A stretch of 64,000 nt of DNA from a virus (IMGVR_UViG_3300027518_000007:575-64574), one strand, 5' to 3'. Shown: positions 18,271-36,392, counted from the first letter of the stretch. Program-made: numbers and translations. The notes: generated by a model from the sequence alone, not told the origin.

Positions 18271-18352
18271 CCTAACCTTATACGAGGTAAGGACTTAGGG
18301 CGAATATACTCCGCCCGATTGAACGTAAGTTCTTATCTAGTAAGGGTTTAGG
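18271..18352. repeat. Repeat A unit 1/15 (82 bp: 11-7-11 site, 24-bp GC linker, 11-7-11 site)
   Basis: CCTAACCTTAT-ACGAGGT-AAGGACTTAGG ... CGTAAGTTCTT-ATCTAGT-AAGGGTTTAGG. Confidence 0.85.
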
Positions 18353-18418
18353 GCAAGTTTTCAAATTGGCACGGTATTTGTCCTAGAAACCTTACGAAAA
18401 TGTAAGGAAAGAATTCTC

Positions 18419-18446
18419 TTGCAATTAAAGTTTGGGTTGGTATAAT
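18419..18446 (+). promoter_or_regulatory. sigma70-type early promoter
   Basis: TTGCAA-16bp-TATAAT, followed by GTCGATATAAG; CCTTAC-N6-GTAAGG palindrome at 18390-18407. Confidence 0.75.
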
Positions 18447-18482
18447 GTCGATATAAGAACAAGAGAAAGAAAAGAGGAAAAA

Positions 18483-18743
18483 ATGGAAAATCTGAATTAC
18501 GATCTGATTTCTGACTGCTGTGGTGCTGCTTGTGCTTTTGAAACCGGTGAGGGTAAGGATAGAATCGGAATTTGCATGGATTGCAAGGAATGGTGTGGTG
18601 TGGTGGAAGATATTCCGGAAGCCGATCATATTCCGGGATACGATGATGGTGAATGGGATCCCATTATGGGAGATGCTGAGGATCATATCGAAACGGATGA
18701 TCAGTGGCTTGACGATTTCTGTGGTGAAGAGGATTTTGCCTGA
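18483..18743 (+). CDS. Small Cys-cluster protein with acidic tail
   Basis: SDCCGAAC...CMDCKEWC then D/E-rich C-terminus; start 18483 after RBS GAGG. Confidence 0.65.
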   Translation: MENLNYDLISDCCGAACAFETGEGKDRIGICMDCKEWCGVVEDIPEADHIPGYDDGEWDPIMGDAEDHIETDDQWLDDFCGEEDFA

Positions 18744-18839
18744 ACCTTACGAAAATGTAAGGAAACTTTTCGCTTGCAACCTACAGAATACTCTGTATAA
18801 TGTCGATATAAGAGAAAAGGGAACGATAAAGAAAAGGGA

Positions 18840-19088
18840 ATGAAAATGATCACCATCAACAACCGAAATGAACTCGAAAACTTCCTCTATGGTGCTGATT
18901 CGACCAGCCCCGATACCTTGGTAGGTGTTGCTCGTATCGGTGGTGAGTTGCTCGCTGAGGCTGTTGCTAGCGACATTGCTAACGACGTTACCGGATATAT
19001 CGAGCATTTCTTCCCGATGGGTGATGAGGGAGAGTACATTGAAGTTGCTCGCGATGGTGAGGTTGTGCGAGACTTCCTGTACTACTAA
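18840..19088 (+). CDS. Hypothetical early protein
   Basis: ORF directly after promoter (-10 TATAAT at 18796). Confidence 0.7.
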   Translation: MKMITINNRNELENFLYGADSTSPDTLVGVARIGGELLAEAVASDIANDVTGYIEHFFPMGDEGEYIEVARDGEVVRDFLYY

Positions 19089-19160
19089 GGTATTGACAGC
19101 CATCTAGCTGATACTGTATAATACAGAAACAAGAGAAACGATAACGCAAAGGAAAGAATC

Positions 19161-19310
19161 ATGACCATCCAAGTACAACACACCATTCGCCGCCTAGTTG
19201 CTCATCACGGATATTCCGCTACATTTGTTCAGCATATGGGCGAGGGTATAAGCTTGTACAGTATCGGTGGTATCTATTACCGTATTCGTGGTGATGGTAC
19301 GATCATTTAA
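19161..19310 (+). CDS. Small hypothetical protein (49 aa, not in track)
   Basis: MTIQVQHTIRRLVAHHGYSATF...; RBS AAGGA; own TTGACA promoter upstream. Confidence 0.55.
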   Translation: MTIQVQHTIRRLVAHHGYSATFVQHMGEGISLYSIGGIYYRIRGDGTII

Positions 19311-19317
19311 GCATAAT

Positions 19318-19399
19318 CGTAAAGACTTGTCCCATAAAGACTTACGACAAATCCGGCCCGCCCCTTTTGACGTAACTCCTTGGTGCGTATATACTTACA
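19318..19399. repeat. Repeat A unit 2/15
   Basis: CGTAAAGACTT-GTCCCAT-AAAGACTTACG ... CGTAACTCCTT-GGTGCGT-ATATACTTACA. Confidence 0.9.
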
Positions 19400-19529
19400 G
19401 CAAATATAAAAAATATTATGTTTGGCATGAAAATATATTCGACAAAATCCAAAGATTTCTCTTGCAATGGCCGATAACTACTGTATAATGAAAGCACAAG
19501 AGAAAATGAAAGAAGAAAAGGATAAGAAA

Positions 19530-19727
19530 ATGACTTACGGTTTTGAAACTTGGCACACGATGAAGTTTGGCAATACCACTGCAACCTTTAAGGTTTATCC
19601 TAGTGGTTCTTTTGTGATTCAGACCATTCTCCGTGATGGTAAGAATGTTACCGATAGCCTCTTGGCTAATCGTAGTGTGTCTGGATTGATTCGGTTCAAT
19701 GTTGCAAATAATCTTATCAAGTATTGA
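19530..19727 (+). CDS. Hypothetical early protein
   Basis: MTYGFETWHTMKFG..., downstream of promoter at 19462. Confidence 0.6.
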   Translation: MTYGFETWHTMKFGNTTATFKVYPSGSFVIQTILRDGKNVTDSLLANRSVSGLIRFNVANNLIKY

Positions 19728-19874
19728 GAGACCCTAATGATTACGACTATCGACTATATCGAATTGGCTGGCCTGTTGAGCTTCTGTGCTTTTTTCACCT
19801 ATACTGTGCATGAGATTGGTAATGCTATCCATTCCATGCTGAACGACTAATTCCCAACAAAGAAAGAAAAGAAT

Positions 19875-20192
19875 ATGACACACTTTGAAGCAGTGAAGAT
19901 GGTTCGTGGTAAGACTAATAAGGATACCCGTAAGGTAGGCAACAATACCTATGCGGAAATTCTTCCCGATGGTAGCGTAGGGATCATGCTGCACAGTACC
20001 TATGTGGTGAAGATTCATCCCGATAACTCTGCTACCCTTAATAGTGGGGGGTGGCACACGGTAACGACTAAGGATCGAATCAATCAGTATTCACCTGTAC
20101 GTGTGTATCAGCGTAAGGGACAATGGTACCTCGAAAGTGGGGAAGAGTACGAAGATGGGGTGGTGGTAGCGGACATGAATCTGGTCTACTAG
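19875..20192 (+). CDS. Conserved-looking phage protein
   Basis: LNSGGWHTVTTKDRIN motif; stop abuts repeat A unit 3. Confidence 0.65.
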   Translation: MTHFEAVKMVRGKTNKDTRKVGNNTYAEILPDGSVGIMLHSTYVVKIHPDNSATLNSGGWHTVTTKDRINQYSPVRVYQRKGQWYLESGEEYEDGVVVADMNLVY

Positions 20193-20193
20193 A

Positions 20194-20275
20194 CGTAAGT
20201 CCTTGACCCTAAAGCACTTAGGGCAAGGCGGGCGGGCCGGGCGTGACGTAAGTGCTTATGCTCCAACGACTTACG
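20194..20275. repeat. Repeat A unit 3/15
   Basis: CGTAAGTCCTT-GACCCTA-AAGCACTTAGG ... CGTAAGTGCTT-ATGCTCC-AACGACTTACG. Confidence 0.92.
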
Positions 20276-20437
20276 GCGAATTAGCAAAAGCTGTGCCAAA
20301 ACTCAACAAAATCGAAAAAAGTTTTGTCAAAATCTCTTGACAATAAAATCTCTGGATTTCTCTTGCAAACTCAAGAAAGCTGTGGTATAATGACGATATA
20401 AGAGATAGAGAAGAAAGAAAGAAAGAGAGAGTTAGAG

Positions 20438-20656
20438 ATGGAAAAGGTTATGAGTGTGAATGGTTTCATTGGTTCGCTTCCCAAGATTGTTGAGAAGAAA
20501 GTTTGGAAAGTGACCGATCAGAATGGTACGGTTGTTCAGTATGTTGGTGCTACCGATAATCGGGAAAGCACTGCACAAGCGTACATTGATGAAAAGTATG
20601 TTGGTCAAAATCTTATCCTGACGTTCTCACACTTCAAGGGATTGATGGCCCTCTAA
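20438..20656 (+). CDS. Hypothetical early protein
   Basis: First ORF after promoter TTGCAA(20363)-17-TATAAT. Confidence 0.65.
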   Translation: MEKVMSVNGFIGSLPKIVEKKVWKVTDQNGTVVQYVGATDNRESTAQAYIDEKYVGQNLILTFSHFKGLMAL

Positions 20657-20718
20657 TAGAGGGGGTTGACAGAACAAAAAACTTTGATAAAATACTGGAA
20701 AGAGAAAGAGAGAAAAGA

Positions 20719-20928
20719 ATGTACGAAATTGGTGACAGTGTGACGCTCAAGGGATTCGATAGCCAGATTACTGGAAAGATTGTTTCCTATCATTACGATG
20801 AGGGTAACGTGTGGACGGTTAGGATGCCTGGTGGACAGGAATGGGATTTTGGCGACCATGAACTGGCTCCCGCAGTTGATGCGTACGGCCATCCTTGGAC
20901 TTATCGACCCACCCATAGTGGGGGTTGA
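20719..20928 (+). CDS. Small SH3/KOW-like beta protein
   Basis: YEIGDSVTLK...TGKIV...WTVR pattern. Confidence 0.55.
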   Translation: MYEIGDSVTLKGFDSQITGKIVSYHYDEGNVWTVRMPGGQEWDFGDHELAPAVDAYGHPWTYRPTHSGG

Positions 20929-20994
20929 TGCTTGGCGATGACATTCTGTATAATGCACACACAAGAGAACGATAGACCTAAGAGAGAAAAGAAA

Positions 20995-21375
20995 ATGAAA
21001 ACCAAGTTCCCCATCATCGAAAATGCCAAGCGTCAAGCCCGTATGTGCTTCAAGGGTATCGCAATCCCTGTTCGCCACGAAGTGACCGACGAACAGTTTA
21101 TCATCGACGTTGACTACGTTCATGGTGTGGCTGACCACAAGCGTTACGTTGTGAGTGAAAAGGTTCTCAAGTTCAATCGTACCGCTCTGAAAAATATCGG
21201 TAAGATTCGCAAGGAAAAGGCCGATCCCCGCTATGTAGGGGGTGAGGATACCATGATCGTTCCTGTTGGCAAGCCGGGTTCTCGCGAACGTGTGGAAGAA
21301 CTTGCCAAGCAGTATGCCGCTATTGCTGCTTGTGGTGAAGAAATCAGCCCGTTCAGCTTCAAGAGTGATGAATGA
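20995..21375 (+). CDS. Hypothetical early protein
   Basis: Start MKTKF chosen after own promoter; track start 20932. Confidence 0.65.
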   Translation: MKTKFPIIENAKRQARMCFKGIAIPVRHEVTDEQFIIDVDYVHGVADHKRYVVSEKVLKFNRTALKNIGKIRKEKADPRYVGGEDTMIVPVGKPGSRERVEELAKQYAAIAACGEEISPFSFKSDE

Positions 21376-21408
21376 GCGTACACTACTGCACAAAAGTATA
21401 GCAGTTGA

Positions 21409-21490
21409 CGTAAAGCGTTACCCTATAAGGACTTAGGGCAAACGCGGTCCGCCCCGCGAAGCGTAAGTATTTGTCAGATATAGACTTACG
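21409..21490. repeat. Repeat A unit 4/15
   Basis: CGTAAAGCGTT-ACCCTAT-AAGGACTTAGG ... CGTAAGTATTT-GTCAGAT-ATAGACTTACG. Confidence 0.9.
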
Positions 21491-21544
21491 TATCATTCCT
21501 CGAACCTTACGATATTGTAAGGAAACTTTTTCTGGTCTAACCTA

Positions 21545-21573
21545 TTGACTTTGGACGATAATAGTGGTATAAT
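21545..21573 (+). promoter_or_regulatory. sigma70-type early promoter with CGATA spacer motif
   Basis: TTGACT-TTGGACGATAATAGTGG-TATAAT. Confidence 0.8.
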
Positions 21574-21788
21574 GATAGAACAAGAAAGAGAGAATGAGAA
21601 TGAAAGAATTTTCCACTAGAGTTTTGCAGGACAACTTGTGGCTAGAGCAGGTCCGCCTCGCTAGGGATACCGATCCCGAAATGATCGAACTAAGGAAACA
21701 GCATATTTCCTATCTTGCAACAGAATTGCTTCGTCGCTATCGTGAAGAATCTGTATTGCTCGCTACTAAGTAAAGGATCGAAAGAAAA

Positions 21789-22118
21789 ATGCACAGTTCA
21801 AAAAATTATCCGTTGCACAGGGTTGGAGAAAATTGGCTAGTATGGTATATGTCGGATTATTATAATCGTGCGTACTATAACGGTAACACTCCAACTGCAA
21901 AAAATGCACGTATCGAAACTTTTGAGGGTACGGTAGTCAGTTCAAAATGGATGGATAATAAAAAAACTGGACACCCATATGGGTGGCTAGTTGTTATTAA
22001 ACTTGCCGATGGTTCATATCGTTCGCTCTATGAGTGTAAGTGTCAGATGATTAGTTCGCCCAAGAATAAAACTTGGTCGCAGACTATTAAAAATGAATCT
22101 GTAGTTGGTCTCGCCTAA
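21789..22118 (+). CDS. Hypothetical early protein
   Basis: 109-aa ORF; stop lies within repeat B copy 1. Confidence 0.6.
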   Translation: MHSSKNYPLHRVGENWLVWYMSDYYNRAYYNGNTPTAKNARIETFEGTVVSSKWMDNKKTGHPYGWLVVIKLADGSYRSLYECKCQMISSPKNKTWSQTIKNESVVGLA

Positions 22119-22152
22119 TCCTCCGGATTTGGGATGGATGGGTATAGACAGC
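22113..22152 (+). repeat. Repeat B copy 1/6 (40 bp)
   Basis: GCCTAATCCTCCGGATTTGGGATGGATGGGTATAGACAGC. Confidence 0.85.
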
Positions 22153-22589
22153 CTAAAGTTTGCTCCCTTGACGAACCGATAATAATAGTGTAGAATGGTG
22201 CAAAGAAAGAGGTACTGTATGTTGGGAGATTTTATTATGGTGTGGGTCTGGATGGGTGTCATGTGTGGGGTTTTGTTCTTTGCTTATTTTCTCTCTATTG
22301 TAGGAGAAGTTTGGCAAAGGATAAATGAATATGAGAATATGAAATCTAGGGGTTATACTCTTATGAAAAGTGATAAGGGTGATGATTTCTGGGTAGGATA
22401 CGGGGATTGACCGAATAACAATGGAGATGCAAGGATGTGTCAACTGGATTTCGTTAGTGTCGCTTTTGGTTATATTTGTGGTATCGTACTGTACGCTAGT
22501 ATGTCAAATATCATGTATATGGAGGAAAATGATGAGAGCGAGTGACTACATATTGTGGGGGGTGTGTTTTGTTATCGGTTGTGCTATGA

Positions 22590-22671
22590 CGTATCTCCTT
22601 CACCTGTAAGGACTTACGTCGAGTCCGGCCGCCCCCGCGAAGCGTAAGTGCTTATCCTGCAACACTTTACG
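22590..22671. repeat. Repeat A unit 5/15
   Basis: CGTATCTCCTT-CACCTGT-AAGGACTTACG ... CGTAAGTGCTT-ATCCTGC-AACACTTTACG. Confidence 0.9.
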
Positions 22672-22800
22672 TCAACTAAAAGATTTTTCATCTTTGGCAT
22701 GAAATTATATTCTGAAATTTTCCAAGTTCATGCTTGACACTGGCCGATAATAAGTGTAGAATCACAGCATCACGAACGGAAACCACCAAGGAACAGAATC

Positions 22801-22974
22801 ATGCTGAACTTCGACGAGATCAACGACATTCTGAACGACATGGCCGAAGCGGGGATTGTGGAGCCGATGGTTGAGCCGATTGACGACCCCAGCGTGGAAG
22901 TTAATTTTTGGGATTGGGCTGACGTTGTAGGTGCTGTTGACGATTTTGTTCCCGAGGAGTATGATCATGCTTAG
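22801..22974 (+). CDS. Small acidic protein (57 aa, not in track)
   Basis: MLNFDEINDILNDMAEAGIVEPMVEPIDDPSVEVNFWDWADVVGAVDDFVPEEYDHA; RBS AAGGA; promoter at 22734. Confidence 0.65.
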   Translation: MLNFDEINDILNDMAEAGIVEPMVEPIDDPSVEVNFWDWADVVGAVDDFVPEEYDHA

Positions 22975-23034
22975 TGCGATTGCGTTTGTTGCGTCTTACG
23001 TTGGTTTGCTTTACATTACTACCATTGTGAGGGA

Positions 23035-23298
23035 TTGACCATGGGCTACGAGTATGACGATGTTGAAGATTTTTACGGTGAGTGCATGGACACTGACCTT
23101 TCCGATTATGAGGTTGAGGATGATTCGTTTGATGATAGTATGGATGGTGATGCTGAATCTGCGTTGGCTTCCGCAGGACACGGAATGGATGAGTCCTACG
23201 GCTATTACGGGGAAGATTTAGACTATCAGGAAGATTTCCACGCCGATGAGGCTGTGGGATTCGTAGACTATAACGAGGATGGACCATACGACGATTGA
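23035..23298 (+). CDS. Extremely acidic protein (DNA-mimic candidate)
   Basis: 32 of 87 residues D/E, no K or R. Confidence 0.65.
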   Translation: MTMGYEYDDVEDFYGECMDTDLSDYEVEDDSFDDSMDGDAESALASAGHGMDESYGYYGEDLDYQEDFHADEAVGFVDYNEDGPYDD

Positions 23299-23306
23299 GA
23301 ATTCGC

Positions 23307-23388
23307 CGTAAACCCTTTGTGCATAAGCACTTAGGGCTTGCGCGGCCCGCCCGGTTTGCTCTAAGTCTATATGCTGCAATACTTTGCG
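23307..23388. repeat. Repeat A unit 6/15
   Basis: CGTAAACCCTT-TGTGCAT-AAGCACTTAGG ... TCTAAGTCTAT-ATGCTGC-AATACTTTGCG. Confidence 0.9.
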
Positions 23389-23796
23389 TCAACCTTACGA
23401 GATTGTAAGAAAACTTTCTTCTTGACACCTAAATATTCTCTGCTATACTTGTCGATATAAGAGATAGAGAAAGAGAGTGAATGATGAGTCGATATGATGA
23501 CTGGGATGATGAGGATTCGGACGACGGCTATGATGCTGCTCGTGATGCTTACTTGACGGGTGAAGGCCCGGCAGTTACCCGTAAGCAACGTGAAGAAGTA
23601 GAAGTTTGGAATGAAGAATGTCGTCGTAACGGGTGGTAGTCCATTGAGGAAATAAAATGAAAACAAAAAAGAAAGAGTTGACAGCACATCAGAAAGCTGT
23701 TATACTCATGAATCGTGAAGCTAATCGTGCAGTGAATCGTGTGAAGATGTTAGAACAGTTGTATATTGAAACCATGAAAGCAAAGGAAATTGTTAA

Positions 23797-24027
23797 ATGA
23801 AGTGCGTTGTTACCCATACGGATACTTTTGGCGGCGAAGCTAACTTTGGCTGGGTGAATCGTTATGAGTTCATCCCCAAGAAGAATGCTAGCCAGCGTAG
23901 CGTTGTCCGTAAGGCTAAGGCTCTGGCCGGTATGACAGCGGTCAAGGCCGATACTCTTGACTATGGCGATGGTTATACCGTTAGGCCGCGTGGCTATGCT
24001 CAAATCATCTTTGTTGATTTTGAGTAA
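23797..24027 (+). CDS. Hypothetical early protein
   Basis: TDTFGGEANFGWVNR motif. Confidence 0.65.
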   Translation: MKCVVTHTDTFGGEANFGWVNRYEFIPKKNASQRSVVRKAKALAGMTAVKADTLDYGDGYTVRPRGYAQIIFVDFE

Positions 24028-24042
24028 AAAATAATCTCTCGT

Positions 24043-24124
24043 CGTAAACCCTTTGTGCTCAAACACTTAGGGCCGACAGGGCGGGCCGCGCTCGTTGTAA
24101 GTTCTTATACTGCAATACTTTACG
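24043..24124. repeat. Repeat A unit 7/15
   Basis: CGTAAACCCTT-TGTGCTC-AAACACTTAGG ... TGTAAGTTCTT-ATACTGC-AATACTTTACG. Confidence 0.9.
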
Positions 24125-24220
24125 TCAATCCTTACAATCTCGTAAGATTCAAGTTTACCCCTTGCAATTGACGATAATAGATAGTAGAATGAGGTATAGA
24201 AGAAAGGCAAGAGTGAACAC

Positions 24221-24484
24221 ATGAGTCCCGACGGAAGCTATAACGGTTATCAAAACTATCAGACGTGGAATGTTTGCTTGTGGATCAGCAATGATGAAGG
24301 TTTGTATAGTCTGGCCAAACAGTGTGGCTCTTACGATCATTTCAAGATTTTGATTCGTGAGATTTTTACCACGGCTCCTATCCGATTTGAAACGCCCGAT
24401 TGTGTGGCGTGGAATGATAGTGGTATCAACATGGCTGAAATGGTAGAGTATTGGGAAGAAAATTTTTCTAAAGTTCCCGCTTGA
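24221..24484 (+). CDS. Conserved-looking phage early protein
   Basis: YNGYQNYQTWNVCLWISNDEGLY motif; promoter at 24162. Confidence 0.7.
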   Translation: MSPDGSYNGYQNYQTWNVCLWISNDEGLYSLAKQCGSYDHFKILIREIFTTAPIRFETPDCVAWNDSGINMAEMVEYWEENFSKVPA

Positions 24485-24554
24485 CAAATGACGATAAATA
24501 GTGTAGACTTGTGGCATGGATGTTGTGATTAGTTTTCAATTTGAAAGGGTTTCT

Positions 24555-24959: not shown

Positions 24960-24993
24960 AAACTAGCAGTCTCTGCCTACTAACTGACCAACC

Positions 24994-25075
24994 CCTAACC
25001 CTTTGACACCAAAGGACTTAGGGCGAGGTCGGCCCGCCCGCGTCGTCGTAAGTCTTTATGCACCAACACTTTACG
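24994..25075. repeat. Repeat A unit 8/15
   Basis: CCTAACCCTTT-GACACCA-AAGGACTTAGG ... CGTAAGTCTTT-ATGCACC-AACACTTTACG. Confidence 0.9.
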
Positions 25076-25104: not shown

Positions 25105-25133
25105 TTGACAGGCCGATAATAGTAGTGTAGAAT
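25105..25133 (+). promoter_or_regulatory. sigma70-type early promoter with CGATA spacer motif
   Basis: TTGACA-GGCCGATAATAGTAGTG-TAGAAT. Confidence 0.85.
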
Positions 25134-25868: not shown

Positions 25869-25950
25869 CGTAAGTCCTTATCCTTAAAGAACTTAGGGAT
25901 AGGGCGGCGGGCCGGATTTGATGTAAGTGCTTGTGTATCATAGGGTTACA
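25869..25950. repeat. Repeat A unit 9/15
   Basis: CGTAAGTCCTT-ATCCTTA-AAGAACTTAGG ... TGTAAGTGCTT-GTGTATC-ATAGGGTTACA. Confidence 0.9.
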
Positions 25951-25989: not shown

Positions 25990-26018
25990 TTGACAAGTGA
26001 CGATAATAGATGTATACT
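25990..26018 (+). promoter_or_regulatory. sigma70-type promoter upstream of candidate ncRNA
   Basis: TTGACA-AGTGACGATAATAGATG-TATACT. Confidence 0.85.
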
Positions 26019-26542: not shown

Positions 26543-26803
26543 ATGGAATGGATTAGTTTTCACGGGCCTCGTCGCCCTATTAATGGTCAAAAGATTATCT
26601 ATTATGGTGAGCCTATTGGTGTGTGGCGTGGAAAGTATAGAATAAACTATGAGGATGAGTTCTGTATTCATAATATTGATTGTGGTGAAGCTCCCGGTAA
26701 TGTTGATTATTTCGATGCTCCGTACTGGCAACCCGATGAGGGACAGCCCAAACCACCACCACCAGAACAGCCCTACCCACCAGATTATCCTTGGAAAAAC
26801 TGA
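26543..26803 (+). CDS. Hypothetical protein
   Basis: 86-aa ORF coupled to a 54-aa ORF at 26379-26543. Confidence 0.6.
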   Translation: MEWISFHGPRRPINGQKIIYYGEPIGVWRGKYRINYEDEFCIHNIDCGEAPGNVDYFDAPYWQPDEGQPKPPPPEQPYPPDYPWKN

Positions 26804-27342
26804 TCGCTTTTCTTGATATTCTCTATCGCCCACAGCGGTTGTAAATTAGAATAGTGAAAACATTCTTTTTGTTGGTCAGAATCGGACAGATCGAATAGAG
26901 CACAAGGTTTTATGTGGTCGATATGCCACTTTCCGTAATTATCCCAATTCATACCTTCTGTAAACATTGCCGATAAATAAACTTTTAATGCCTCGATAGA
27001 GCATCCTATTAAGACCATCGTTGATACAGATTTGCTGTTGTTTTTGATAGCTTTGTAAATTCTACCTCTCAAATTAATTTTAATCTTGTAATTTACGTCT
27101 GTTTGTCTACGTTCTTTTGAGCGTTCTCTTTTACGAGCATTGACTTTGTCACTATTCAGTTTTTCTAACTCTCTTTGTCTGTCTTTATATTTTAAGTAAT
27201 ATGCAGCTTTGTATTCTTTATCTTTGCCTTTACGAGATATAGAGCGACATTCTTTACACTGATGAGCATAGCCGGTCCTTCTTTTATGAAATTGAGATAC
27301 TGATAATTCTTGTTTGCATTTATTACAAATTTTTATATCCAT
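26785..27342 (-). CDS. HNH homing-type endonuclease (paralog of 41704 and 60333 genes)
   Basis: CNKC...CKEC N-terminal Zn motif; WHIDHIKP...CFHYSNLQPLWAIENIKKS. Confidence 0.85.
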   Translation of the reverse strand: MDIKICNKCKQELSVSQFHKRRTGYAHQCKECRSISRKGKDKEYKAAYYLKYKDRQRELEKLNSDKVNARKRERSKERRQTDVNYKIKINLRGRIYKAIKNNSKSVSTMVLIGCSIEALKVYLSAMFTEGMNWDNYGKWHIDHIKPCALFDLSDSDQQKECFHYSNLQPLWAIENIKKSDQFFQG

Positions 27343-27425: not shown

Positions 27426-27507
27426 CATAAGTCCTTGCTGCTAAAAGACTTAGCTCAAGGGAGGGCGGCCGGGTTTGACGTAAGTCCTTATCTCTAAAGA
27501 CTTTACG
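27426..27507. repeat. Repeat A unit 10/15
   Basis: CATAAGTCCTT-GCTGCTA-AAAGACTTAGC ... CGTAAGTCCTT-ATCTCTA-AAGACTTTACG. Confidence 0.9.
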
Positions 27508-27588
27508 ATTAGCAATATTTTTTCAAGATTTCCTCTTGACTTGTCGATAATAGTAGTGTAAGATAGTGGTAACACGAAAGGGAATAAA

Positions 27589-28594: not shown

Positions 28595-28676
28595 CCTAAA
28601 GCCTTGTCCCTAAAGAACTTAGGGCGAGGCTGGGCCGCCGAATTTGACGTAAGTCCTTATCAGCAAACAACTTAGG
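28595..28676. repeat. Repeat A unit 11/15
   Basis: CCTAAAGCCTT-GTCCCTA-AAGAACTTAGG ... CGTAAGTCCTT-ATCAGCA-AACAACTTAGG. Confidence 0.9.
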
Positions 28677-28715: not shown

Positions 28716-28744
28716 TTGACAATGACGATACTATACTGTAGAAT
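28716..28744 (+). promoter_or_regulatory. sigma70-type early promoter with CGATA spacer motif
   Basis: TTGACA-ATGACGATACTATACTG-TAGAAT. Confidence 0.85.
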
Positions 28745-29304: not shown

Positions 29305-29802
29305 TTATATGTGCTGCCATTGTTGATTAGAAACTATTCGTTTAATATGCTGATAAGAAACATCATATTTTCTTCCTAAATCAGCTAATGTATATTTACC
29401 AGAACTATAAAGTATTCTAATCTCTTTAATATCCTCTTCTGAGAGTTTTGCTCTGCCGTGATCAATGCCTAGTCTAGGTTTTGTTTTGTGAGATTTAGCA
29501 GTATTTGACGATCTTTCTAACCATTGTAGATTATCTATATGGTTATTAGACATATCCCCATCAATATGGTCTATGGTAGGATGGATCATATCATTAGGTT
29601 TAGGCTCGCCCCAAACGTCCATAACTAATTGATAGGTTTTTCTTCTATATCCATTGCCAGTATTAATGGTTAGATAGCCGTCTTGATCTTTAAAACCGAT
29701 AAACTTTTGATATCTAAGACTAAAAATACGGCCATCTTTATAAACTAGATAATTGGTATAAACTGGGTGTGTTTTTGCTTCATTGTTCATAATTTCCTCC
29801 AT
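29305..29802 (-). CDS. HNH endonuclease (NUMOD4/HNH_3-like) with C-terminal HTH
   Basis: TIDHIDGDMSNNHIDNLQWL; AKLSEEDIKEIR...LGRKYDVS. Confidence 0.85.
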   Translation of the reverse strand: MEEIMNNEAKTHPVYTNYLVYKDGRIFSLRYQKFIGFKDQDGYLTINTGNGYRRKTYQLVMDVWGEPKPNDMIHPTIDHIDGDMSNNHIDNLQWLERSSNTAKSHKTKPRLGIDHGRAKLSEEDIKEIRILYSSGKYTLADLGRKYDVSYQHIKRIVSNQQWQHI

Positions 29803-29816
29803 ACCTTATAATACAC

Positions 29817-29898
29817 CACAAGTCTTTATTTGGCAAGCACTTAGGTAAAATCCGCCCGGCCGCCCGCGTCGTAAGTCCTTATACCATAAGGCTTTGCG
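29817..29898. repeat. Repeat A unit 12/15
   Basis: CACAAGTCTTT-ATTTGGC-AAGCACTTAGG ... CGTAAGTCCTT-ATACCAT-AAGGCTTTGCG. Confidence 0.88.
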
Positions 29899-29980
29899 TC
29901 ATAAATAATTTCTTCAAGATTATCCCTTGACACTCCGATACTAATGGTATAGAATCAGGGTATCACTAGGAGAAAACGCT

Positions 29981-30694: not shown

Positions 30695-30706
30695 AAGGAT
30701 TTTGGC

Positions 30707-31276
30707 ATGAGTTACGTTGGATTGTATGATGATGCAGGAAGCAAGAATGCTTTCTATATTATTAAAGACAAAAAGATTGGCCGTAAACGTGTGGGCTTTA
30801 AAGAATTTGAGAATAAACAAGAAGCAGAGTTTGCCCATCGGGTTCAAAAATATCTGGCCGAGTTTAATTTGGCTCCTATGGTATATGGGGATGTTGGTAT
30901 GATTCGTAGGCATGATGGTGAATTAACTTGTTATGGTTATTTGACCGAAGTTGCTCGACCTATGCCAGTATGTCATGACGATGATTGTGATGGTGAATGT
31001 TTTCAGAGTGAATGTGGTAATGGTACTACTATTTGTGAAGTAGTTTATGATTTGAGTGAACATGGATTAGAATATAACGATGCCCATAAGGGTAATTTTG
31101 GTTATGTTCGACGTAAGGGTTCATGGGTTCCGGTTGCTATCGACCTTGGGGTTGAGAGTTTTACTGATTGGGATGAGAGTATTTATGGACAATTTGATTA
31201 CGATGCTGATGACGATGTTGATAGTTATGGGGCGTGTAATTGTTTTCAATGTCAAAAGTTCCGGGAGGAACAATAA
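30707..31276 (+). CDS. Minimal protein-kinase-like fold protein
   Basis: Catalytic-loop-like NDAHKGNFG and Mg-binding AIDLG; LAPMVYG and YLTEVA subdomain-like segments. Confidence 0.6.
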   Translation: MSYVGLYDDAGSKNAFYIIKDKKIGRKRVGFKEFENKQEAEFAHRVQKYLAEFNLAPMVYGDVGMIRRHDGELTCYGYLTEVARPMPVCHDDDCDGECFQSECGNGTTICEVVYDLSEHGLEYNDAHKGNFGYVRRKGSWVPVAIDLGVESFTDWDESIYGQFDYDADDDVDSYGACNCFQCQKFREEQ

Positions 31277-31817
31277 TGAGCAAATACTATATCAAGTGTG
31301 GAACACTAGAACTAATTTATTCCTGCAACAAATGCCCAAGGGATGCTGCGATGGATGCTATATGGGAAACAAATGAAAACGATACACTAGATGAGCATAT
31401 CTATCTTGATGAACGTGGATATAAAGACTATACAAATGCTGATGGATTAACTTGTGTGTTACACACTACCCATATTCTCAAAGATGCAGGATGGAGTATA
31501 GAATGAATATATCAGAATTGAGGCGTATTATTACTGCTATCTGTCCAAACTCTGAAATAGAGTGGGATAATGAGAATCAAATTATTATCTATACTGGATT
31601 GACGGACGACGAGAATGGCGAACTGAGGGAGATAGAATAATGTGGATTATTATTGACGAGAAAAAAGTAAGACATAAGTGGGAATGTCCCGAGTGCGACA
31701 ATAAAGTTTATGTAGAACCTTGGTGGTATTCAGAAAATGGAACACCTATGTGTGATAGGTGTGATATAGATACTGAATACGTCCATACACAAATAGATAT
31801 TGAATCATAAGAATCGC

Positions 31818-31899
31818 CGCAAACCCTTGGTGTGTAAGCACTTAGGGCAAGCGGGGCGGGCCGTATTTGACATAACTCGTTGTACAGCAACACTTTAGA
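31818..31899. repeat. Repeat A unit 13/15
   Basis: CGCAAACCCTT-GGTGTGT-AAGCACTTAGG ... CATAACTCGTT-GTACAGC-AACACTTTAGA. Confidence 0.88.
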
Positions 31900-31935
31900 A
31901 CAAATCCAAAAATCTTCTAAAGTTCGCTGTGTCGC

Positions 31936-32349
31936 ATGGTCGATAATAGAAGTATGAAGATTAGACGAGAACAAACGAGGAATGAGAAGATGATCCAGTG
32001 GGTTGGGATTGTGATTACGATTTTGGGTCTGGCCTATACGGGAATCAAAGATTATCAAAAGGGTGATATAAAATTCCCTCCCATGCCTCAAAAACCGGCC
32101 TTGACAAAAGTAGTTTATCCGGTACAATACTGTCTGATGGCTTACGACCCTAATGTTGACAAAGTTTTTTACCTACACGAAAATGGACAATGGCATGATT
32201 ACGCTCCACAACAACGACGATATGAGACCACGCCGCAACCATATCAAACTCAAGGTGCGACCGCAGTGGCAAGTTCCTACGGGTCACAAGGAACACCGGC
32301 ATACCGTTATGGACAATCGCCCCAAGCGTATGCGAACCCGATCCGCTGA
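31936..32349 (+). CDS. Membrane-anchored hypothetical protein
   Basis: TM helix IQWVGIVITILGLAYTGI; Gln/Pro/Tyr-rich tail. Confidence 0.6.
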   Translation: MVDNRSMKIRREQTRNEKMIQWVGIVITILGLAYTGIKDYQKGDIKFPPMPQKPALTKVVYPVQYCLMAYDPNVDKVFYLHENGQWHDYAPQQRRYETTPQPYQTQGATAVASSYGSQGTPAYRYGQSPQAYANPIR

Positions 32350-32399
32350 AAACCGCAGGGCTTGCGACAATGGAGACTATTGAGTATAATAGGTTGATT

Positions 32400-32472
32400 G
32401 CCAGTGTAGCTCAGTCAGCAGAGCGTCAAATTTGTAATTTGAATGTCACGGGTGCAACTCCTGTCACTGGCT
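32400..32472 (+). tRNA. tRNA-Thr(TGT), atypical D/T loops
   Basis: GCCAGTG/CACTGGC, TCAAA-TTTGTAA-TTTGA, T-loop TGCAACT. Confidence 0.85.
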
Positions 32473-32477
32473 TTTAT

Positions 32478-32549
32478 TGCCCGATAGCACAATGGTACTG
32501 CAACGGATTTTGGTTCCGTCGTTTCTAGGTTCGAATCCTAGTCGGGCAT
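32478..32549 (+). tRNA. tRNA-Gln(TTG)
   Basis: TGCCCGA/TCGGGCA (U1-A72), ACGGA-TTTTGGT-TCCGT, TTCGAAT. Confidence 0.9.
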
Positions 32550-32556
32550 ATAATAT

Positions 32557-32628
32557 TGGCTCGTAGCTCAATGGTCGAGCTGTCGGCTGTTAACCGACCG
32601 GTTGTAGGTTCGAGTCCTACCGAGCCAG
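32557..32628 (+). tRNA. tRNA-Asn(GTT)
   Basis: TGGCTCG/CGAGCCA, GTCGG-CTGTTAA-CCGAC, TTCGAGT, G73. Confidence 0.93.
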
Positions 32629-32639
32629 TTTAAGTTTAA

Positions 32640-32726
32640 GGAAGAATGGCAGAGTGGTCTAATGCATCTGATTACTAATCAGAAGAAGTGTAAAAACTTC
32701 CGTGGGTTCGAATCCTACTTCTTCCG
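32640..32726 (+). tRNA. tRNA-Ser(ACT), rare anticodon
   Basis: GGAAGAA/TTCTTCC, TCTGA-TTACTAA-TCAGA, long variable arm GAAGT-GTAAAA-ACTTC, G73. Confidence 0.85.
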
Positions 32727-32756
32727 TTCGGAGGCTGATGTTTGAGTTACGAGTGC

Positions 32757-32828
32757 GGCCCCATAGTATAGTAGTTAGTATGCTGGCCTTTCACGCCGGA
32801 GACCTGGGAGCGTAACCCAGTGGGGTCA
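32757..32828 (+). tRNA. tRNA-Glu(TTC), atypical D/T loops
   Basis: GGCCCCA/TGGGGTC, CTGGC-CTTTCAC-GCCGG, T-arm CTGGG-AGCGTAA-CCCAG. Confidence 0.8.
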
Positions 32829-32836
32829 TTTGTTTC

Positions 32837-32876
32837 TGCTAATCCTGCGGATTTGGTGGTCTTGGCGATAGTCAGC
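32837..32876 (+). repeat. Repeat B copy 3/6
   Basis: TGCTAATCCTGCGGATTTGGTGGTCTTGGCGATAGTCAGC. Confidence 0.85.
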
Positions 32877-33135
32877 GAGAATCCTAAAGTTTTGGGTGTT
32901 GACAGGACGATATTGGTATGGTAGACTGTTGGAACAAGAAAGGAAAGTGATGATGAAGAACCTTCGCATCTATGATATTCTGACTGAGGATGGTAAAACT
33001 CTGGCCGACATTACTCTCTCTATGCAAGAGGATTTTGATTGGGCCGATGTTTTTGATAAGCTGTATGATTTTACAACCGAGAATATTCAAAGTTATTCTT
33101 ACGAGGAAATTACTGTAAACGCCGAATAGGTTGAT

Positions 33136-33208
33136 GCGCCTCTAGCTCAATTGGCAGAGCACGAAACTTTTAATTTTGGGGTTCTGGGTTCGATTCCCAG
33201 GGGGCGCA
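33136..33208 (+). tRNA. tRNA-Lys(TTT)
   Basis: GCGCCTC/GGGGCGC, CGAAA-CTTTTAA-TTTTG, TTCGATT. Confidence 0.9.
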
Positions 33209-33261
33209 CTTGACAGGGTTGATTGTTGGTGTAGAATAGAGGTAAGAAAGGGAGTAGAAAT

Positions 33262-33441
33262 ATGAGATATGAAGATTACTATGACGGCTATAACTATGAC
33301 TACGATGAATTGGTAGAAAATACCGAAGATCTTGGTCTAGATGAAGAACCTTGGATGAATGATCTTGAGGAAGAAGAAGATGACGAGGTTCCATCTTATG
33401 GCAAGAACTATTATCCTAGTATTGAGGAAGATGAAGATTGA
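33262..33441 (+). CDS. Extremely acidic Tyr-rich small protein (59 aa, not in track)
   Basis: MRYEDYYDGYNYDYDELVENTEDLGLDEEPWMNDLEEEEDDEVPSYGKNYYPSIEEDED; RBS GGGAG; own TTGACA...TAGAAT promoter. Confidence 0.65.
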   Translation: MRYEDYYDGYNYDYDELVENTEDLGLDEEPWMNDLEEEEDDEVPSYGKNYYPSIEEDED

Positions 33442-33447
33442 TTTTTT

Positions 33448-33530
33448 GTGTGTGCATCTAGGTGGGACTAGACCCTAATATATTTATCCTTTCTTGTAAC
33501 GGGCTGTTGGTTCAAATCCAACCACACACT
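33448..33530 (+). ncRNA. tRNA-like element with non-canonical anticodon arm
   Basis: Perfect acceptor GTGTGTG/CACACAC, D-arm TCTAG-GTGGGA-CTAGA, T-arm GTTGG-TTCAAAT-CCAAC; no standard anticodon stem-loop. Confidence 0.65.
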
Positions 33531-33532
33531 TT

Positions 33533-34030
33533 ATGAACGCTTTCCAGCAAGAGCTTGATGACTTCCGGCGTACCCCAGACGGTAAGATTATCCAAGGGGC
33601 TGCTCATACCTGTATGGTATTAAATCACAAGGTTCGCAATAAGATTATTATTAAAGCTGTTTGTGATTTGAGAAAAATCGATAATGAGTTTGATAGTATT
33701 GTTTGCTCTGGCGTAAGCGGATTAATTATAACTCCACAAGTATCCGAAATTCTGAATAAACATCTAATAATTGTTAGAAAAAAAAATGAAGAAAGATACA
33801 GCGAGTTTACTGTAGAAGGAACAAATCCTGGAAGATATATTATATTAGACGATTTAATATGTAGTAATAATACAGTAAAACATATTATGAAAAGTATTAA
33901 AGAAGAATCGACAAGATCGATATGTATTGGAGCTTATTTTTATCTACCACAAGAATGTAGCTATAAACATAATGGGGATGGGGATAAATTGTTTAAAAAA
34001 GATTTAGGAATTAAGCTTCTTAATATCTGA
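33533..34030 (+). CDS. Type I phosphoribosyltransferase-domain protein
   Basis: PRPP-binding loop YIILDDLICSNNT; IVCSGVSG...IIVRK. Confidence 0.8.
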   Translation: MNAFQQELDDFRRTPDGKIIQGAAHTCMVLNHKVRNKIIIKAVCDLRKIDNEFDSIVCSGVSGLIITPQVSEILNKHLIIVRKKNEERYSEFTVEGTNPGRYIILDDLICSNNTVKHIMKSIKEESTRSICIGAYFYLPQECSYKHNGDGDKLFKKDLGIKLLNI

Positions 34031-34489
34031 TAAAAATATCGTATCCGGATGTATGGTTCCGTACCAATGAAATTTCCCGTGTGCTATCTGATCTGGAAAT
34101 ATCCATAAATTCTCTGGCCTATTGTCTGTTTTGATCTCATTAACATGATGTATAACTTCTTTACGAAACAATTGTCTGCCGATTATTTCTTCTGCTATTA
34201 TTCTATGAATCATTACTCTTTTTTTATTAATAGTAGTTCTATTATATCCTCCACCATTTAATCCGTGTTTATAGCTGTGGTGATCTGTTCCGGATTTAGA
34301 ATTTAAACCATTTGCTTCTTTGATACCTCTAATTGGAATATTATGTTTTCTTAATTGATATCTAATGGTTTCATCGCTACAATTTTTAATTTTAGCAATT
34401 TTGCTAGCTGATAGCTTTTGATTAAGATATAGATCTTTTAGCTCTTCTATGTTTAGGTTTAAATATGGTCTAGTTTTACGGTTTTTCAT
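34004..34489 (-). CDS. HNH endonuclease with N-terminal HTH
   Basis: HRIIAE...VIHHVNEIKTDNRPENL. Confidence 0.85.
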   Translation of the reverse strand: MKNRKTRPYLNLNIEELKDLYLNQKLSASKIAKIKNCSDETIRYQLRKHNIPIRGIKEANGLNSKSGTDHHSYKHGLNGGGYNRTTINKKRVMIHRIIAEEIIGRQLFRKEVIHHVNEIKTDNRPENLWIFPDQIAHGKFHWYGTIHPDTIFLSDIKKLNS

Positions 34490-34545
34490 AGTATAGCCCT
34501 CCTGATCTATAATACACCACTCGACCAGAGATTGCAGAATCTTTT

Positions 34546-34627
34546 TTTAAAGTATTGCCATGTAAGGACTTAGAGCAAGCTGGGGCGGCCCCGGTCGCCG
34601 TAAGTCCTTATCTGCCAACGACTTGCG
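34546..34627. repeat. Repeat A unit 14/15
   Basis: TTTAAAGTATT-GCCATGT-AAGGACTTAGA ... CGTAAGTCCTT-ATCTGCC-AACGACTTGCG. Confidence 0.88.
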
Positions 34628-34655
34628 ACATGCGGAATTTTTCCAAAGTTTTCGC

Positions 34656-34684
34656 TTGACACTGCCGATAATATAGTGTAGAAT
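34656..34684 (+). promoter_or_regulatory. sigma70-type early promoter upstream of DUF932 gene
   Basis: TTGACA-CTGCCGATAATATAGTG-TAGAAT. Confidence 0.85.
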
Positions 34685-34727
34685 CAGTGAACGAGAACGA
34701 TTGAACAGTAACACGAAAGGGATGATT

Positions 34728-35678
34728 ATGGCTCATGCAGTTGAACAGATGATGTTTGTTGGTGCGACTCCGTGGCACGGTCTGGGTAACCAGCTCGACG
34801 AAGCTCCAACGGTTTCGGAGGCGATGACTGCCGCCGGTTTGGATTGGGAAGTTGGTCTGAAGGATTTGGTCACGGTGGATGGTCAGCCCGTTCCGGCCCG
34901 TGCGACCTATCGCAAAACGGATGATAGCATTTTGGGTGTTGTCGGCCCACGATATACTCCGCTGCAAAACAGCGAGGCGTTCGATTGGTTCCAGCCGTTT
35001 CTGGACGCTGGCGAGTGTGCGTTGCATACTGCCGGTTCGCTCCACAGAGGTCAGAAGGTTTGGGTGCTGGCCCAACTGAACCGCGACAATAGCGAGATCG
35101 TGAAGGGTGACGAGGTTGGGAAGTTCATTCTTCTCAGCAACTCGCACGATGGCACGACCGCTATCCGGGTTGGCTATACGCCGATCCGCGTTGTGTGTGC
35201 AAACACTATGGCGATGGCCCATAGCAAGAGCAGTGGTTCCAAGTTGATCCGTATTCGTCACACACGTTCCAGCAAGACCAATCTGGAAAACGTGCGAGAC
35301 ATTATGGACAACATTAACATGGAGTTTGAGGCGACTGCGGAGCAGTTCAAGTTCCTCGCGTCAAAGAACTTCAATCAGGCCGACGTTCGTCGCTATGTCA
35401 AGGTGATGCTCGACATTGACGGTACGCCGGACGATCAGATCAAGACTCGTACCAGAAATATCATGGACGAGATTCTGAATCTGGTCGAAGGTCCGAAGCA
35501 GAGTGCTACTGGCGTGAGAGGCACATGGTGGGCCGCAATGAACGGATATAATGAGTATCTAAATTATCACAAGGGTCGCACGGAAGATAACCGTCTCGAC
35601 TCACTGTGGTTCGGGCTTAATGCTAACGATAATATCAAGGCGTTAAATACCGCAATGCAATTTGCTAGTGCAGTCTAA
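34728..35678 (+). CDS. DUF932 (phage/plasmid-like TIGR03299 family) protein
   Basis: TPWHGLG, YTPLQN, TAGSL...VWVLA, LLSNSHDG, PIRVVCANT, IRHT, GTWWAA.N...EY. Confidence 0.85.
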   Translation: MAHAVEQMMFVGATPWHGLGNQLDEAPTVSEAMTAAGLDWEVGLKDLVTVDGQPVPARATYRKTDDSILGVVGPRYTPLQNSEAFDWFQPFLDAGECALHTAGSLHRGQKVWVLAQLNRDNSEIVKGDEVGKFILLSNSHDGTTAIRVGYTPIRVVCANTMAMAHSKSSGSKLIRIRHTRSSKTNLENVRDIMDNINMEFEATAEQFKFLASKNFNQADVRRYVKVMLDIDGTPDDQIKTRTRNIMDEILNLVEGPKQSATGVRGTWWAAMNGYNEYLNYHKGRTEDNRLDSLWFGLNANDNIKALNTAMQFASAV

Positions 35679-35696
35679 CTTTTCTTCACCATTAGC

Positions 35697-35739
35697 AAAA
35701 CGAATTCGCCGCTCAGAAATGGGTGGCGATTTTGTTTTT
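35697..35739. terminator. Bidirectional-type intrinsic terminator after DUF932 gene
   Basis: AAAAC..TCGCCGCTC-AGAAAT-GGGTGGCGA..TTTTGTTTT. Confidence 0.7.
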
Positions 35740-35790
35740 ATGGTGTATATATTTATGTGTCAAAAATACGTTACCCAAAAGGATTATTCA

Positions 35791-36315
35791 ATGCCAAGAT
35801 TTAAAAAAGAAGAATCATATCTTACCGTTATAAAAGAAGATGGTAATATTGATAATTATAAAGCCGTTATTTGTAAGTGCAAGTGCGGGAGAATGATTAG
35901 ATGCAAAAAAACATTAATTAATAGCGGAAGGAAAAAATCGTGTGGATGCATGATTACTGAGTCGGAATTTGTATCAAAAAATATTATTAGGATGTATTGG
36001 GTTGCTATTATAGCTAATGCAGATTCTAGGAATATCGAGTTTAAGATTACTCCAGAAAATCTAGAGAAACAAATAACTAAACAAAATTTTAAGTGTGCTC
36101 TTTCTGGCTTAGACATATCATTACCATATTCTAGCGATGAATTTTTGATTAAGAGGAAATGGACAGCTTCTGTTGATAGAATAGACTCTAGTAAGCCTTA
36201 TACGAAAAATAATATTCAATTCCTGCATAAAGATATAAATAGAATGAAGCTAGATTTAGATGAGCAAGTATTCGTGGCATATTGCAAGGCTGTCTCTACC
36301 TGTCACTTGACGTAA
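35791..36315 (+). CDS. HNH-like homing endonuclease
   Basis: CKCKCG...KKSCGC N-terminal Zn/AP2-associated motif; SVDRIDSSKPYTKNNIQFLHKDINRMK; start 35755 or 35791. Confidence 0.75.
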   Translation: MPRFKKEESYLTVIKEDGNIDNYKAVICKCKCGRMIRCKKTLINSGRKKSCGCMITESEFVSKNIIRMYWVAIIANADSRNIEFKITPENLEKQITKQNFKCALSGLDISLPYSSDEFLIKRKWTASVDRIDSSKPYTKNNIQFLHKDINRMKLDLDEQVFVAYCKAVSTCHLT

Positions 36316-36392
36316 ATCCTTATCAGCAAAGGACTTAGGTCGAGCCGGGCCGCGAAATCTTGTCCTAAGTATAATGATACCAACGACTTACG
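36311..36392. repeat. Repeat A unit 15/15
   Basis: CGTAAATCCTT-ATCAGCA-AAGGACTTAGG ... CCTAAGTATAA-TGATACC-AACGACTTACG. Confidence 0.88.

Follow-up and report, generated by a model that had tools for sequence, protein, structure and literature searches.

The promoter-early stem-loop (PeSL) cassettes of T4-like phages (Arbiol et al. 2010, PMC2839356; Comeau et al. 2014, PMC4122927) are repeated composites in which a GC-rich element is followed by an A/T-rich tract and a strong sigma70 early promoter. The genes that they flank are small, have no known function and belong to a plastic early region, and the junctions of indels and replacements between relatives are located in the motif, with no dedicated recombinase. 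The upstream element of PeSL is a stem-loop that was shown to terminate transcription. In the operator/stoperator network of cluster A mycobacteriophages (L5 gp71; PMC9283540, PMC6550527), many copies of one protein-binding site lie in short intergenic gaps at gene ends, along transcription, and the site is also found in promoters; the proposed roles are to block elongation at gene ends and initiation at promoters. The viral DNA analysed here, IMGVR_UViG_3300027518_000007:575-64574 (64,000 nucleotides, hereafter the window), contains 15 copies of an 82-bp intergenic element, the unit, which consists of two 29-bp palindromes and divides the early region into gene cassettes. The unit resembles PeSL in layout and stoperators in logic but is a member of neither; it is a repeated regulatory boundary element of a phage early region that is unusually elaborate and rigid. 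On the sequence features described below, the units are predicted, with a probability of about 0.6, to be paired operators at which a sequence-specific protein insulates or regulates the early cassettes.

The unit shares with PeSL the order of the GC-rich element, the A/T-rich tract and the promoter, the small genes of unknown function at its borders, the junctions at the motif and the lack of a dedicated recombinase, but neither fold, covariation nor a U-tract indicates a stable stem-loop. Instead, paired 29-bp palindromes with near-invariant bases are held at a fixed 53-bp spacing within 82 bp, the copies form one contiguous array of 15–17 units, and the phage lineage is unrelated. Many copies in short intergenic gaps at gene ends, an orientation along transcription and a presence in promoters are common to the sites of the units and the stoperators, as are the proposed roles. 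However, stoperators are single asymmetric 13-mers that are bound by a monomer of a known phage immunity repressor and are spread over a temperate genome, whereas the units contain paired palindromic 29-mers in one early array of apparently lytic 230-kb phages, with protein binding as a prediction. The global operator regulons of mobile replicons, such as the KorB OB sites of RK2 and the C1 operators of P1, also place one palindromic operator, in at least a dozen copies, ahead of many promoters at varying distances and thereby control them coordinately, but their sites are single, are 13–17 bp long, form no double-site module and are not cassette boundaries or recombination junctions. Like attC and pdif sites, the units are imperfect palindromes that bound cassettes, and these boundaries are chimeric between neighbours. 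In contrast to the units, attC sites are conserved in structure but not in sequence or length and depend on IntI, pdif modules are Xer sites with an 11-6-11 layout, and the cassettes of both are promoterless and change order or orientation. The array has no recombinase, no shared spacers or structure-only conservation, and no promoterless cassettes of variable order. The CIRCE, NtcA, IHF, dif and protelomerase target sequences were rejected by inspection of half-site order and spacing.

Architecture of the unit and its coupling to promoters

All 15 units proposed in a preliminary description of the window were recovered at the same starts (Table 1), each with two sites that begin 53 bp apart around a 24-bp GC-rich linker. 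When the 15 copies are placed side by side, the unit is composed of site 1, the linker and site 2, and each site contains two 11-bp arms separated by a 7-bp spacer (11-7-11). The window contains 94 matches to the degenerate 11-7-11 pattern, compared with 28.3 ± 5.7 in shuffled sequences, and the good matches are the 15 pairs. A position weight matrix (PWM) built from the 15 units scores these units at 68–107 bits, compared with −16 for the best score in shuffled sequence.

An exact-pattern scan across the two inner arms revealed at least 120 stretches with the unit pattern, distributed over more than 80 viral contigs that are up to 244 kb long. The DNA of the matches listed by this exact inner-arm pattern, whose number is a lower bound, is the basis of all clade-wide counts. 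A PWM scan of that DNA identified 583 units, 479 of them distinct, with a median unit-to-unit spacing of 1092 bp, and 536 of the 583 units (92%) are oriented like the majority of their own locus. Each of four complete genomes (230–238 kb) contains one contiguous array of 15–17 units over ∼19 kb and no units elsewhere. In bacterial genome collections, true units are confined to short contigs of metagenome-assembled genomes (MAGs) from six unrelated taxa, where the sites are found on phage-like contigs only and never on chromosomal contigs. The unit-bearing MAG contigs are most likely mis-binned phage fragments, and the assignment of a host or a host regulon through bacterial genomes was rejected because of this distribution. 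Literature searches with the arm sequences returned only unrelated primers, and a search of the general literature on intergenic repeats returned nothing relevant.

The length of the unit, which had been described as invariant, is constant in all 15 window units but not throughout the clade, where 537 of 553 close site pairs (97%) exhibit the 53-bp spacing in an unbiased scan with a single-site model. Spacing variants of 48–55 bp are observed in a few divergent relatives; the loci L049, L072, L092 and L100 belong to such relatives, with a site spacing of 49, 52, 54 or 55 bp. In the 479 distinct copies, the near-invariant bases of site 1 are TAA (positions 3–5), TT (10–11), AA (19–20) and ACTTA (23–27), and those of site 2 are TAAGT (56–60), TT (63–64), AA (72–73) and TTA (78–80). 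The inner arms are conserved more strongly than the outer arms, and every arm runs on into a TTGA/TCAA flank. The centre of the linker is a near-palindromic GGCCGGCC-like core that coincides with the dyad axis of the unit as a whole and shows CC/GG variation in the middle. This arrangement accounts for the earlier remark that the linker occurs in both orientations. The spacer columns hold 0.03–0.75 bits and differ between units. Most of the N7 spacers in the window are different from one another, but not all of them as previously stated, since atcagca is found twice.

The units lie close to the stop codons of the upstream genes. In the 13 units that have a same-strand upstream open reading frame (ORF), the stop-to-unit gaps are −5, 7, 1, 33, −20, 8, 15, 34, 1, 27, 0, 7 and −5 bp, and the reported stop-codon proximity is seen in 10 of the 13, with gaps of ≤16 bp or an overlap with the unit. 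The other two of the 15 units are preceded by reverse-strand HNH genes. Of 440 cases across the clade, 198 have an upstream stop codon that terminates at or within the unit's first five bases.

Covariation was tested on the 479 distinct units using four pairing schemes. The local hairpins of sites 1 and 2 (11 positions each) contain 7.47 and 7.19 Watson-Crick pairs, compared with 7.45 and 7.48 expected from independent columns. Pairing of the inner arms through the linker (23 positions) yields 13.9 observed and 14.3 expected pairs, and pairing of the outer arms (18 positions) yields 8.9 and 9.2. The four central stem positions are paired in only 26–61% of the copies in site 1 and 19–54% in site 2. 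Moreover, the 45 strongest mutual-information pairs are almost all adjacent columns, and none is a stem partner. An earlier claim that arm positions 6–9 do not covary is borne out on this set. Predicted RNA folds are not consistent among the units, and their mean z-score is only −1.8. In the window, no U-tract was found after the units and no canonical intrinsic terminator at the cassette ends, and an Rfam search identified no family for the unit, its matches being tRNAs and one unrelated small RNA. A hairpin or structured RNA was rejected on the basis of the missing covariation, the inconsistent folds and the lack of a U-tract and an Rfam match. Given the lack of covariation in any scheme, each arm is therefore conserved in its own right, as protein–duplex recognition predicts.

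The units are coupled to promoters. For 77% of the units, a strong sigma70 promoter, defined by at least 10 of 12 consensus positions, is located on the same strand no more than 150 bp downstream, compared with 3–4% in three controls (the upstream region and both reverse-strand regions). The promoters that had been reported after 13 of the 15 window units are found 28–87 bp downstream. The promoter consensus consists of cTTGACA, a spacer containing CGATAA, and tGTAgAAT, with an A/T-rich tract ahead; the array promoters match the sigma70 consensus at 10–12 of 12 positions and have an UP-like tract. The CGATA(A/T) sequence in the spacer (approximately −25 to −21) is present in nearly all promoters in and just after the array, for example those of units 8, 12 and 14. 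It is unusual for sigma70 promoters and may be an extra recognition element.

The distance from the unit end to the −35 element is discontinuous, with peaks at 18, 28–29, 39–40, 51 and 62 bp. This ladder persists after collapse to 115 groups by downstream sequence, which lessens the effect of shared ancestry, and a Rayleigh scan is best at 10.75–11 bp (R = 0.54, n = 90). Without the dominant 25–33 bp class, the ladder is still significant (p ∼2e-6). The unit and the promoter therefore hold a fixed helical face.

In the whole 69.6-kb contig that contains the window, only three sites are observed outside units, all within 1.1 kb after the array. The three single sites score 22–27 bits, compared with a shuffled maximum of 12, and overlie the start region of a promoter or its −35 element (Table 1). 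At positions 36616 and 37364, the right arm ends with CTTGCG and is followed by T, and the −35 hexamer is located 16 bp upstream of an extended −10 element. All three architectures recur in many relatives. Some relatives also contain modules of a single site, an A/T tract and a promoter at a distance of 27–31 bp, often at the array start without an upstream cassette. Mini-palindromes (CTTAC, 4–7 bases, GTAAG) are found in the array only, 11, 15 or 22 bp before a −35 element, with five copies compared with 0.23 expected. The mini-palindromes are made up of the six outermost bases of the unit arms, with their relative order reversed. The earlier suggestion of a phased array of protein-binding sites on double-stranded DNA is well supported by the lack of covariation, the 53-bp spacing, the 10.5–11 bp ladder and the single sites over core promoter elements.

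Cassette order and exchange at the units

Clustering of 477 inter-unit segments revealed a conserved backbone order of the cassettes. For example, cassette 0 comes after cassette 1 in 23 of 26 cases. The window follows the backbone order, and three positions hold cassettes that are found nowhere else in the set. Moreover, no cassette inversion was seen among the clade loci. Given the conserved backbone order, the cassettes are therefore not shuffled. Alignment end-points between relatives are enriched ∼10-fold at the 5′ and 3′ edges of the units, and in the relative L075, a 59-codon ORF is inserted exactly between the stop codon and unit 9. The idea of a cassette system was thus retained in part: homology breakpoints cluster at the units and many units combine halves of different origin, but the order is conserved.

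The median difference between a unit and its nearest unit is 25 of 82 bases within the same locus, compared with 9 of 82 in another genome. The units are therefore position-specific and show no concerted evolution and no recent transposition. A mobile repeat resembling a miniature inverted-repeat transposable element (MITE) or a repetitive extragenic palindrome (REP) was rejected because of this difference and the single contiguous array per genome.

The two halves of the unit differ in their history. In pairs of units with the same upstream and a different downstream cassette, the mismatch is 0.18 in spacer 1, 0.26 in the left linker, 0.26 in the core, 0.37 in the right linker and 0.46 in spacer 2; the corresponding values for random pairs are 0.66, 0.53, 0.36, 0.55 and 0.64. 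Orthologous controls exhibit a mismatch of 0.14 in spacer 1 and 0.27 in spacer 2. The mirror comparison, with the same downstream and a different upstream cassette, behaves alike. In pairs with a near-identical spacer 1 (≤1 mismatch), spacer 2 is unrelated (3–6 of 7 mismatches) in 35 of 48 pairs, compared with 6 of 25 controls. This chimeric spacer pattern places most exchange points inside the unit. The evolutionary module is composed of site 2, the promoter, the genes and site 1; the left half of a chimeric unit goes with the cassette before it and the right half with the cassette after it. At seven junctions that lack one given cassette, one unit is clearly chimeric, one is ambiguous and the rest keep the whole upstream unit, and the exchange points are therefore not confined to a single position.

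By analogy with the proposal for PeSLs, exchange at the units is best explained by ordinary recombination in conserved islands. Crossovers between co-infecting relatives would resolve inside the units because the units are the only conserved islands in a fast-changing region, and the cassettes would consequently be replaced as modules that run from site 2 to the next site 1. Profile searches that were positive in control genomes identified no tyrosine or serine recombinase (PF00589, PF00239) in the four complete 230–238 kb genomes or this contig, which extends the previously noted absence of a recombinase gene from the window. The suggested likeness to tyrosine-recombinase, integron or pdif systems was abandoned in view of the missing recombinase, the differing spacers, the conserved order, the cassettes' own promoters, and copies that are less alike within a genome than between positional counterparts.

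Four HNH genes adjoin the 5′ edges of units (Table 1). Two of them have matches to Pfam HNH_3, one has PHROG endonuclease matches, and one has no match. The three reverse-strand genes adjoin the units with the most degenerate left arms. The HNH genes resemble free-standing homing genes for which the conserved edge of the unit serves as a landing site. Lake-metagenome contigs without the HNH genes of the window have the corresponding edges in or near units, and one lake-metagenome contig contains an extra 378-bp insert between the copies of a duplicated unit. Relatives in lake water lack at least two of the HNH genes, with near-zero depth over positions 33696–34349 and 35658–36311.

Predicted role of the units as paired operators

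In the proposed mechanism, each 29-bp palindrome would be a duplex-DNA operator for a sequence-specific protein that binds as a dimer and is probably encoded by the phage. The two sites are five helical turns apart on the same face with a stiff GC-rich core between them, an arrangement that would allow two dimers to form one complex. Site 2 would belong to the downstream cassette both functionally and evolutionarily; its helical phase relative to the UP-like A/T tract and near-consensus sigma70 promoter that follow is fixed, and site 2 is predicted to control or insulate this promoter. Site 1 would cap the upstream cassette at the stop codon, where a terminator would otherwise sit. The bound complex could act as a roadblock or insulator that replaces the missing intrinsic terminators and so makes a separate transcription unit of each early cassette, and one protein may coordinately control all 13–17 early promoters. 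Timed repression, consisting of shut-off and roadblock, is somewhat favoured over activation because the promoters are already near-consensus and because single sites cover the −35 element or start region of three promoters after the array.

Several observations weigh against paired operators. No regulator was identified among the ∼60 window proteins in Pfam and PHROG scans, and the HU/IHF, XRE-type helix-turn-helix and ParB families have no match in the four complete genomes. The units are located at about −64 to −145 without a second operator at most array promoters, and simple occlusion is therefore inapplicable at most of them. Internal promoters without units are present, and promoter activity therefore does not need the units. 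The distance ladder could be explained in part by A-tract phasing or by insertion of mini-palindromes, and the rare spacing variants, which include 49 bp, speak against a strict requirement for phase. A hairpin with conserved mismatches would also evade the covariation test. Furthermore, window DNA was found in none of the RNA runs.

The same sites might bind a protein that activates or enhances early and middle promoters from upstream, in the manner of a class I activator. This is possible but unlikely. A distance ladder with a helical period is the classic sign of face-dependent contact between an activator and RNA polymerase, and the after-array promoters that have a site over the −35 element combine a poor −35 (TTGCGT) with an extended −10. 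The latter promoters resemble the MotA-box promoters of T4, which are activator-dependent middle promoters. The array promoters, however, are near-consensus with an UP-like tract and should therefore work without an activator; an activating role for site 1 is not obvious, and the single site over a start region occupies the position of a repressor. A dual role is less probable still. Here the array would be a self-contained cassette system with a half-unit at each cassette end, and one phage protein would both control transcription and promote exchange at the GC core. If true, the dual-role binder would make the array the functional equivalent of an integron, but one that lacks all known integrase families. 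There is little chance that the units are dedicated site-specific recombination sites, attC- or pdif-like, that capture, excise and shuffle cassettes. The 11-7-11 geometry fits such sites, breakpoints concentrate at the units, the chimeric units put exchange points between the two spacers, and the insertions of small ORFs and HNH genes coincide exactly with unit edges. None of this supplies the tyrosine or serine recombinase that is missing from the four complete genomes and the contig, and dedicated sites are at odds with N7 spacers that are barely conserved and differ between units, with a conserved cassette order, as exemplified by cassettes 0 and 1, with cassettes that each have their own promoter and were not seen inverted, and with units that differ more within a genome than between orthologues.

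Two further readings dispense with a bound protein. In one of them, the units are passive, conserved PeSL-like promoter–terminator linkers that are kept for homologous exchange and weak termination. The GC-rich element, A/T tract and sigma70 promoter next to genes of unknown function reproduce the PeSL layout (PMC2839356, PMC4122927), and mosaic junctions are found at the units. This is nevertheless very unlikely: the near-invariant bases in four arms, the 53-bp spacing and the position-specific variants kept in orthologues need sequence-specific selection, a consistent hairpin and a U-tract are absent, and single sites lie over core promoter elements. The other reading, which has the smallest chance of all, is that the units act as RNA, namely as terminators, RNase III sites or put-like anti-termination double hairpins in read-through early transcripts. 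The early genes of phage T7 are separated by RNase III sites. The units sit right after stop codons, exactly in the position of a terminator, and the palindromic arms could form two hairpins, to which the negative mean fold z-score also points. An RNA role is contradicted by the lack of covariation, the partial pairing of the central stems, minimum-energy structures that are inconsistent between units, and the missing U-tract and Rfam family; moreover, promoter phasing and sites over the −35 element would be senseless for an RNA element.

With four half-sites, a dyad GC core, a fixed length and helical phasing, the unit is among the most strictly built non-coding phage DNA modules known to us, and hundreds of copies of it are maintained throughout a clade of uncultured freshwater phages with 230-kb genomes. 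If the units are indeed paired operators, they would constitute a coordinate switch for the entire host-takeover gene set, and the swapping of cassettes at the operators would explain how this gene set is renewed. The array promoters would then also provide a set of strong, modular and insulated promoters. In metagenomes, the unit serves as a simple sequence signature by which the clade and its early region can be recognised, and the 29-mer or the 82-mer can be used as bait for a new DNA-binding protein.

Source contig and feature coordinates

The window is part of a 69.6-kb viral contig that is estimated to be about half complete. The minus-strand genes of the window include tail-fibre, capsid, portal and terminase genes. 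The window also contains a sigma-like gene and sugar-nucleotide genes, and the array is followed by a long stretch of small plus-strand genes. The GC content of the array (18000–37000) is 41–44%, compared with 32–35% elsewhere in the contig; the array is ∼10 points richer in its coding parts as well as its linkers. Megablast of the array and the structural region identified no cultured relatives, and a sensitive blastn search with one unit identified no cultured phage that carries the unit. The terminase shares only 23–28% identity with any phage record (tblastn). Window DNA is present in subsurface and lake-water metagenomes.

Table 1. Positions of the units, promoters, single sites, mini-palindromes and other features in the window
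Feature	Position	Strand	Remarks
Unit 1	18271..18352	+	First in array; site 1 degenerate
Unit 2	19318..19399	+	Pattern, alignment, PWM
Unit 3	20194..20275	+	Nearest to consensus, 107 bits
Unit 4	21409..21490	+	Pattern, alignment, PWM
Unit 5	22590..22671	+	TAA stop of upstream ORF inside site 1
Unit 6	23307..23388	+	Pattern, alignment, PWM
Unit 7	24043..24124	+	Pattern, alignment, PWM
Unit 8	24994..25075	+	Pattern, alignment, PWM
Unit 9	25869..25950	+	59-aa ORF inserted exactly at 5′ edge in relative L075
Unit 10	27426..27507	+	5′ edge adjoined by reverse-strand HNH gene
Unit 11	28595..28676	+	Stop codon upstream ends at position 0
Unit 12	29817..29898	+	5′ edge adjoined by reverse-strand HNH gene
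Unit 13	31818..31899	+	Without strong promoter after it
Unit 14	34546..34627	+	Adjoined by reverse-strand HNH gene; left arm degenerate
Unit 15	36311..36392	+	Last in array; site 2 degenerate; upstream TAA stop inside site 1
Promoter after unit 1	18419..18446	+	66 bp from unit end
Promoter after unit 2	19462..19489	+	62 bp from unit end
Promoter after unit 3	20363..20391	+	87 bp from unit end
Promoter after unit 4	21545..21573	+	54 bp from unit end
Promoter after unit 5	22734..22762	+	62 bp from unit end
Promoter after unit 6	23422..23449	+	33 bp from unit end
Promoter after unit 7	24162..24190	+	37 bp from unit end
Promoter after unit 8	25105..25133	+	29 bp from unit end
Promoter after unit 9	25990..26018	+	39 bp from unit end
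Promoter after unit 10	27536..27564	+	28 bp from unit end
Promoter after unit 11	28716..28744	+	39 bp from unit end
Promoter after unit 12	29927..29955	+	28 bp from unit end
Promoter after unit 14	34656..34684	+	28 bp from unit end
Single 29-bp site	36464..36492	+	Begins 3 bp past −10-like element, over start region
Single site	36616..36644	+	Right arm (..CTTGCG) provides the −35 of an extended −10 promoter
Single site	37364..37392	+	Right arm provides the −35 of a TGGTATAAT promoter
Mini-palindrome CTTAC-N-GTAAG	18391..18406		11 bp ahead of a −35
Mini-palindrome	18746..18761		Ahead of internal promoter
Mini-palindrome	21506..21521		Between unit 4 and its promoter
Mini-palindrome	23394..23409		Between unit 6 and its promoter
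Mini-palindrome	24131..24146		Between unit 7 and its promoter
HNH gene	26785..27342	-	Adjoins 5′ unit edge
HNH gene	29305..29802	-	Adjoins 5′ unit edge
HNH gene	34004..34489	-	Adjoins 5′ unit edge
HNH gene	35719..36315	+	Adjoins 5′ unit edge
ERCC4-type nuclease	11629..12114	-	
Weak sigma-70 region 2 match	14146..14883	-	
HTTM-domain membrane protein	16877..17800		
tRNA-Ser	32640..32726		Anticodon ACT (ARAGORN)
abiF RNA match (Rfam)	39114..39150		38.3 bits (cut-off 37)
SET-domain protein	39750..40295		
RtcB RNA ligase	57211..58578		

The Rfam match to abiF RNA, which is barely above the threshold, is located directly before a 138-aa ORF. The gene of the HTTM-domain protein adjoins two GDP-mannose dehydratase/epimerase genes, and the tRNA-Ser lies in a cluster of eight phage tRNAs.

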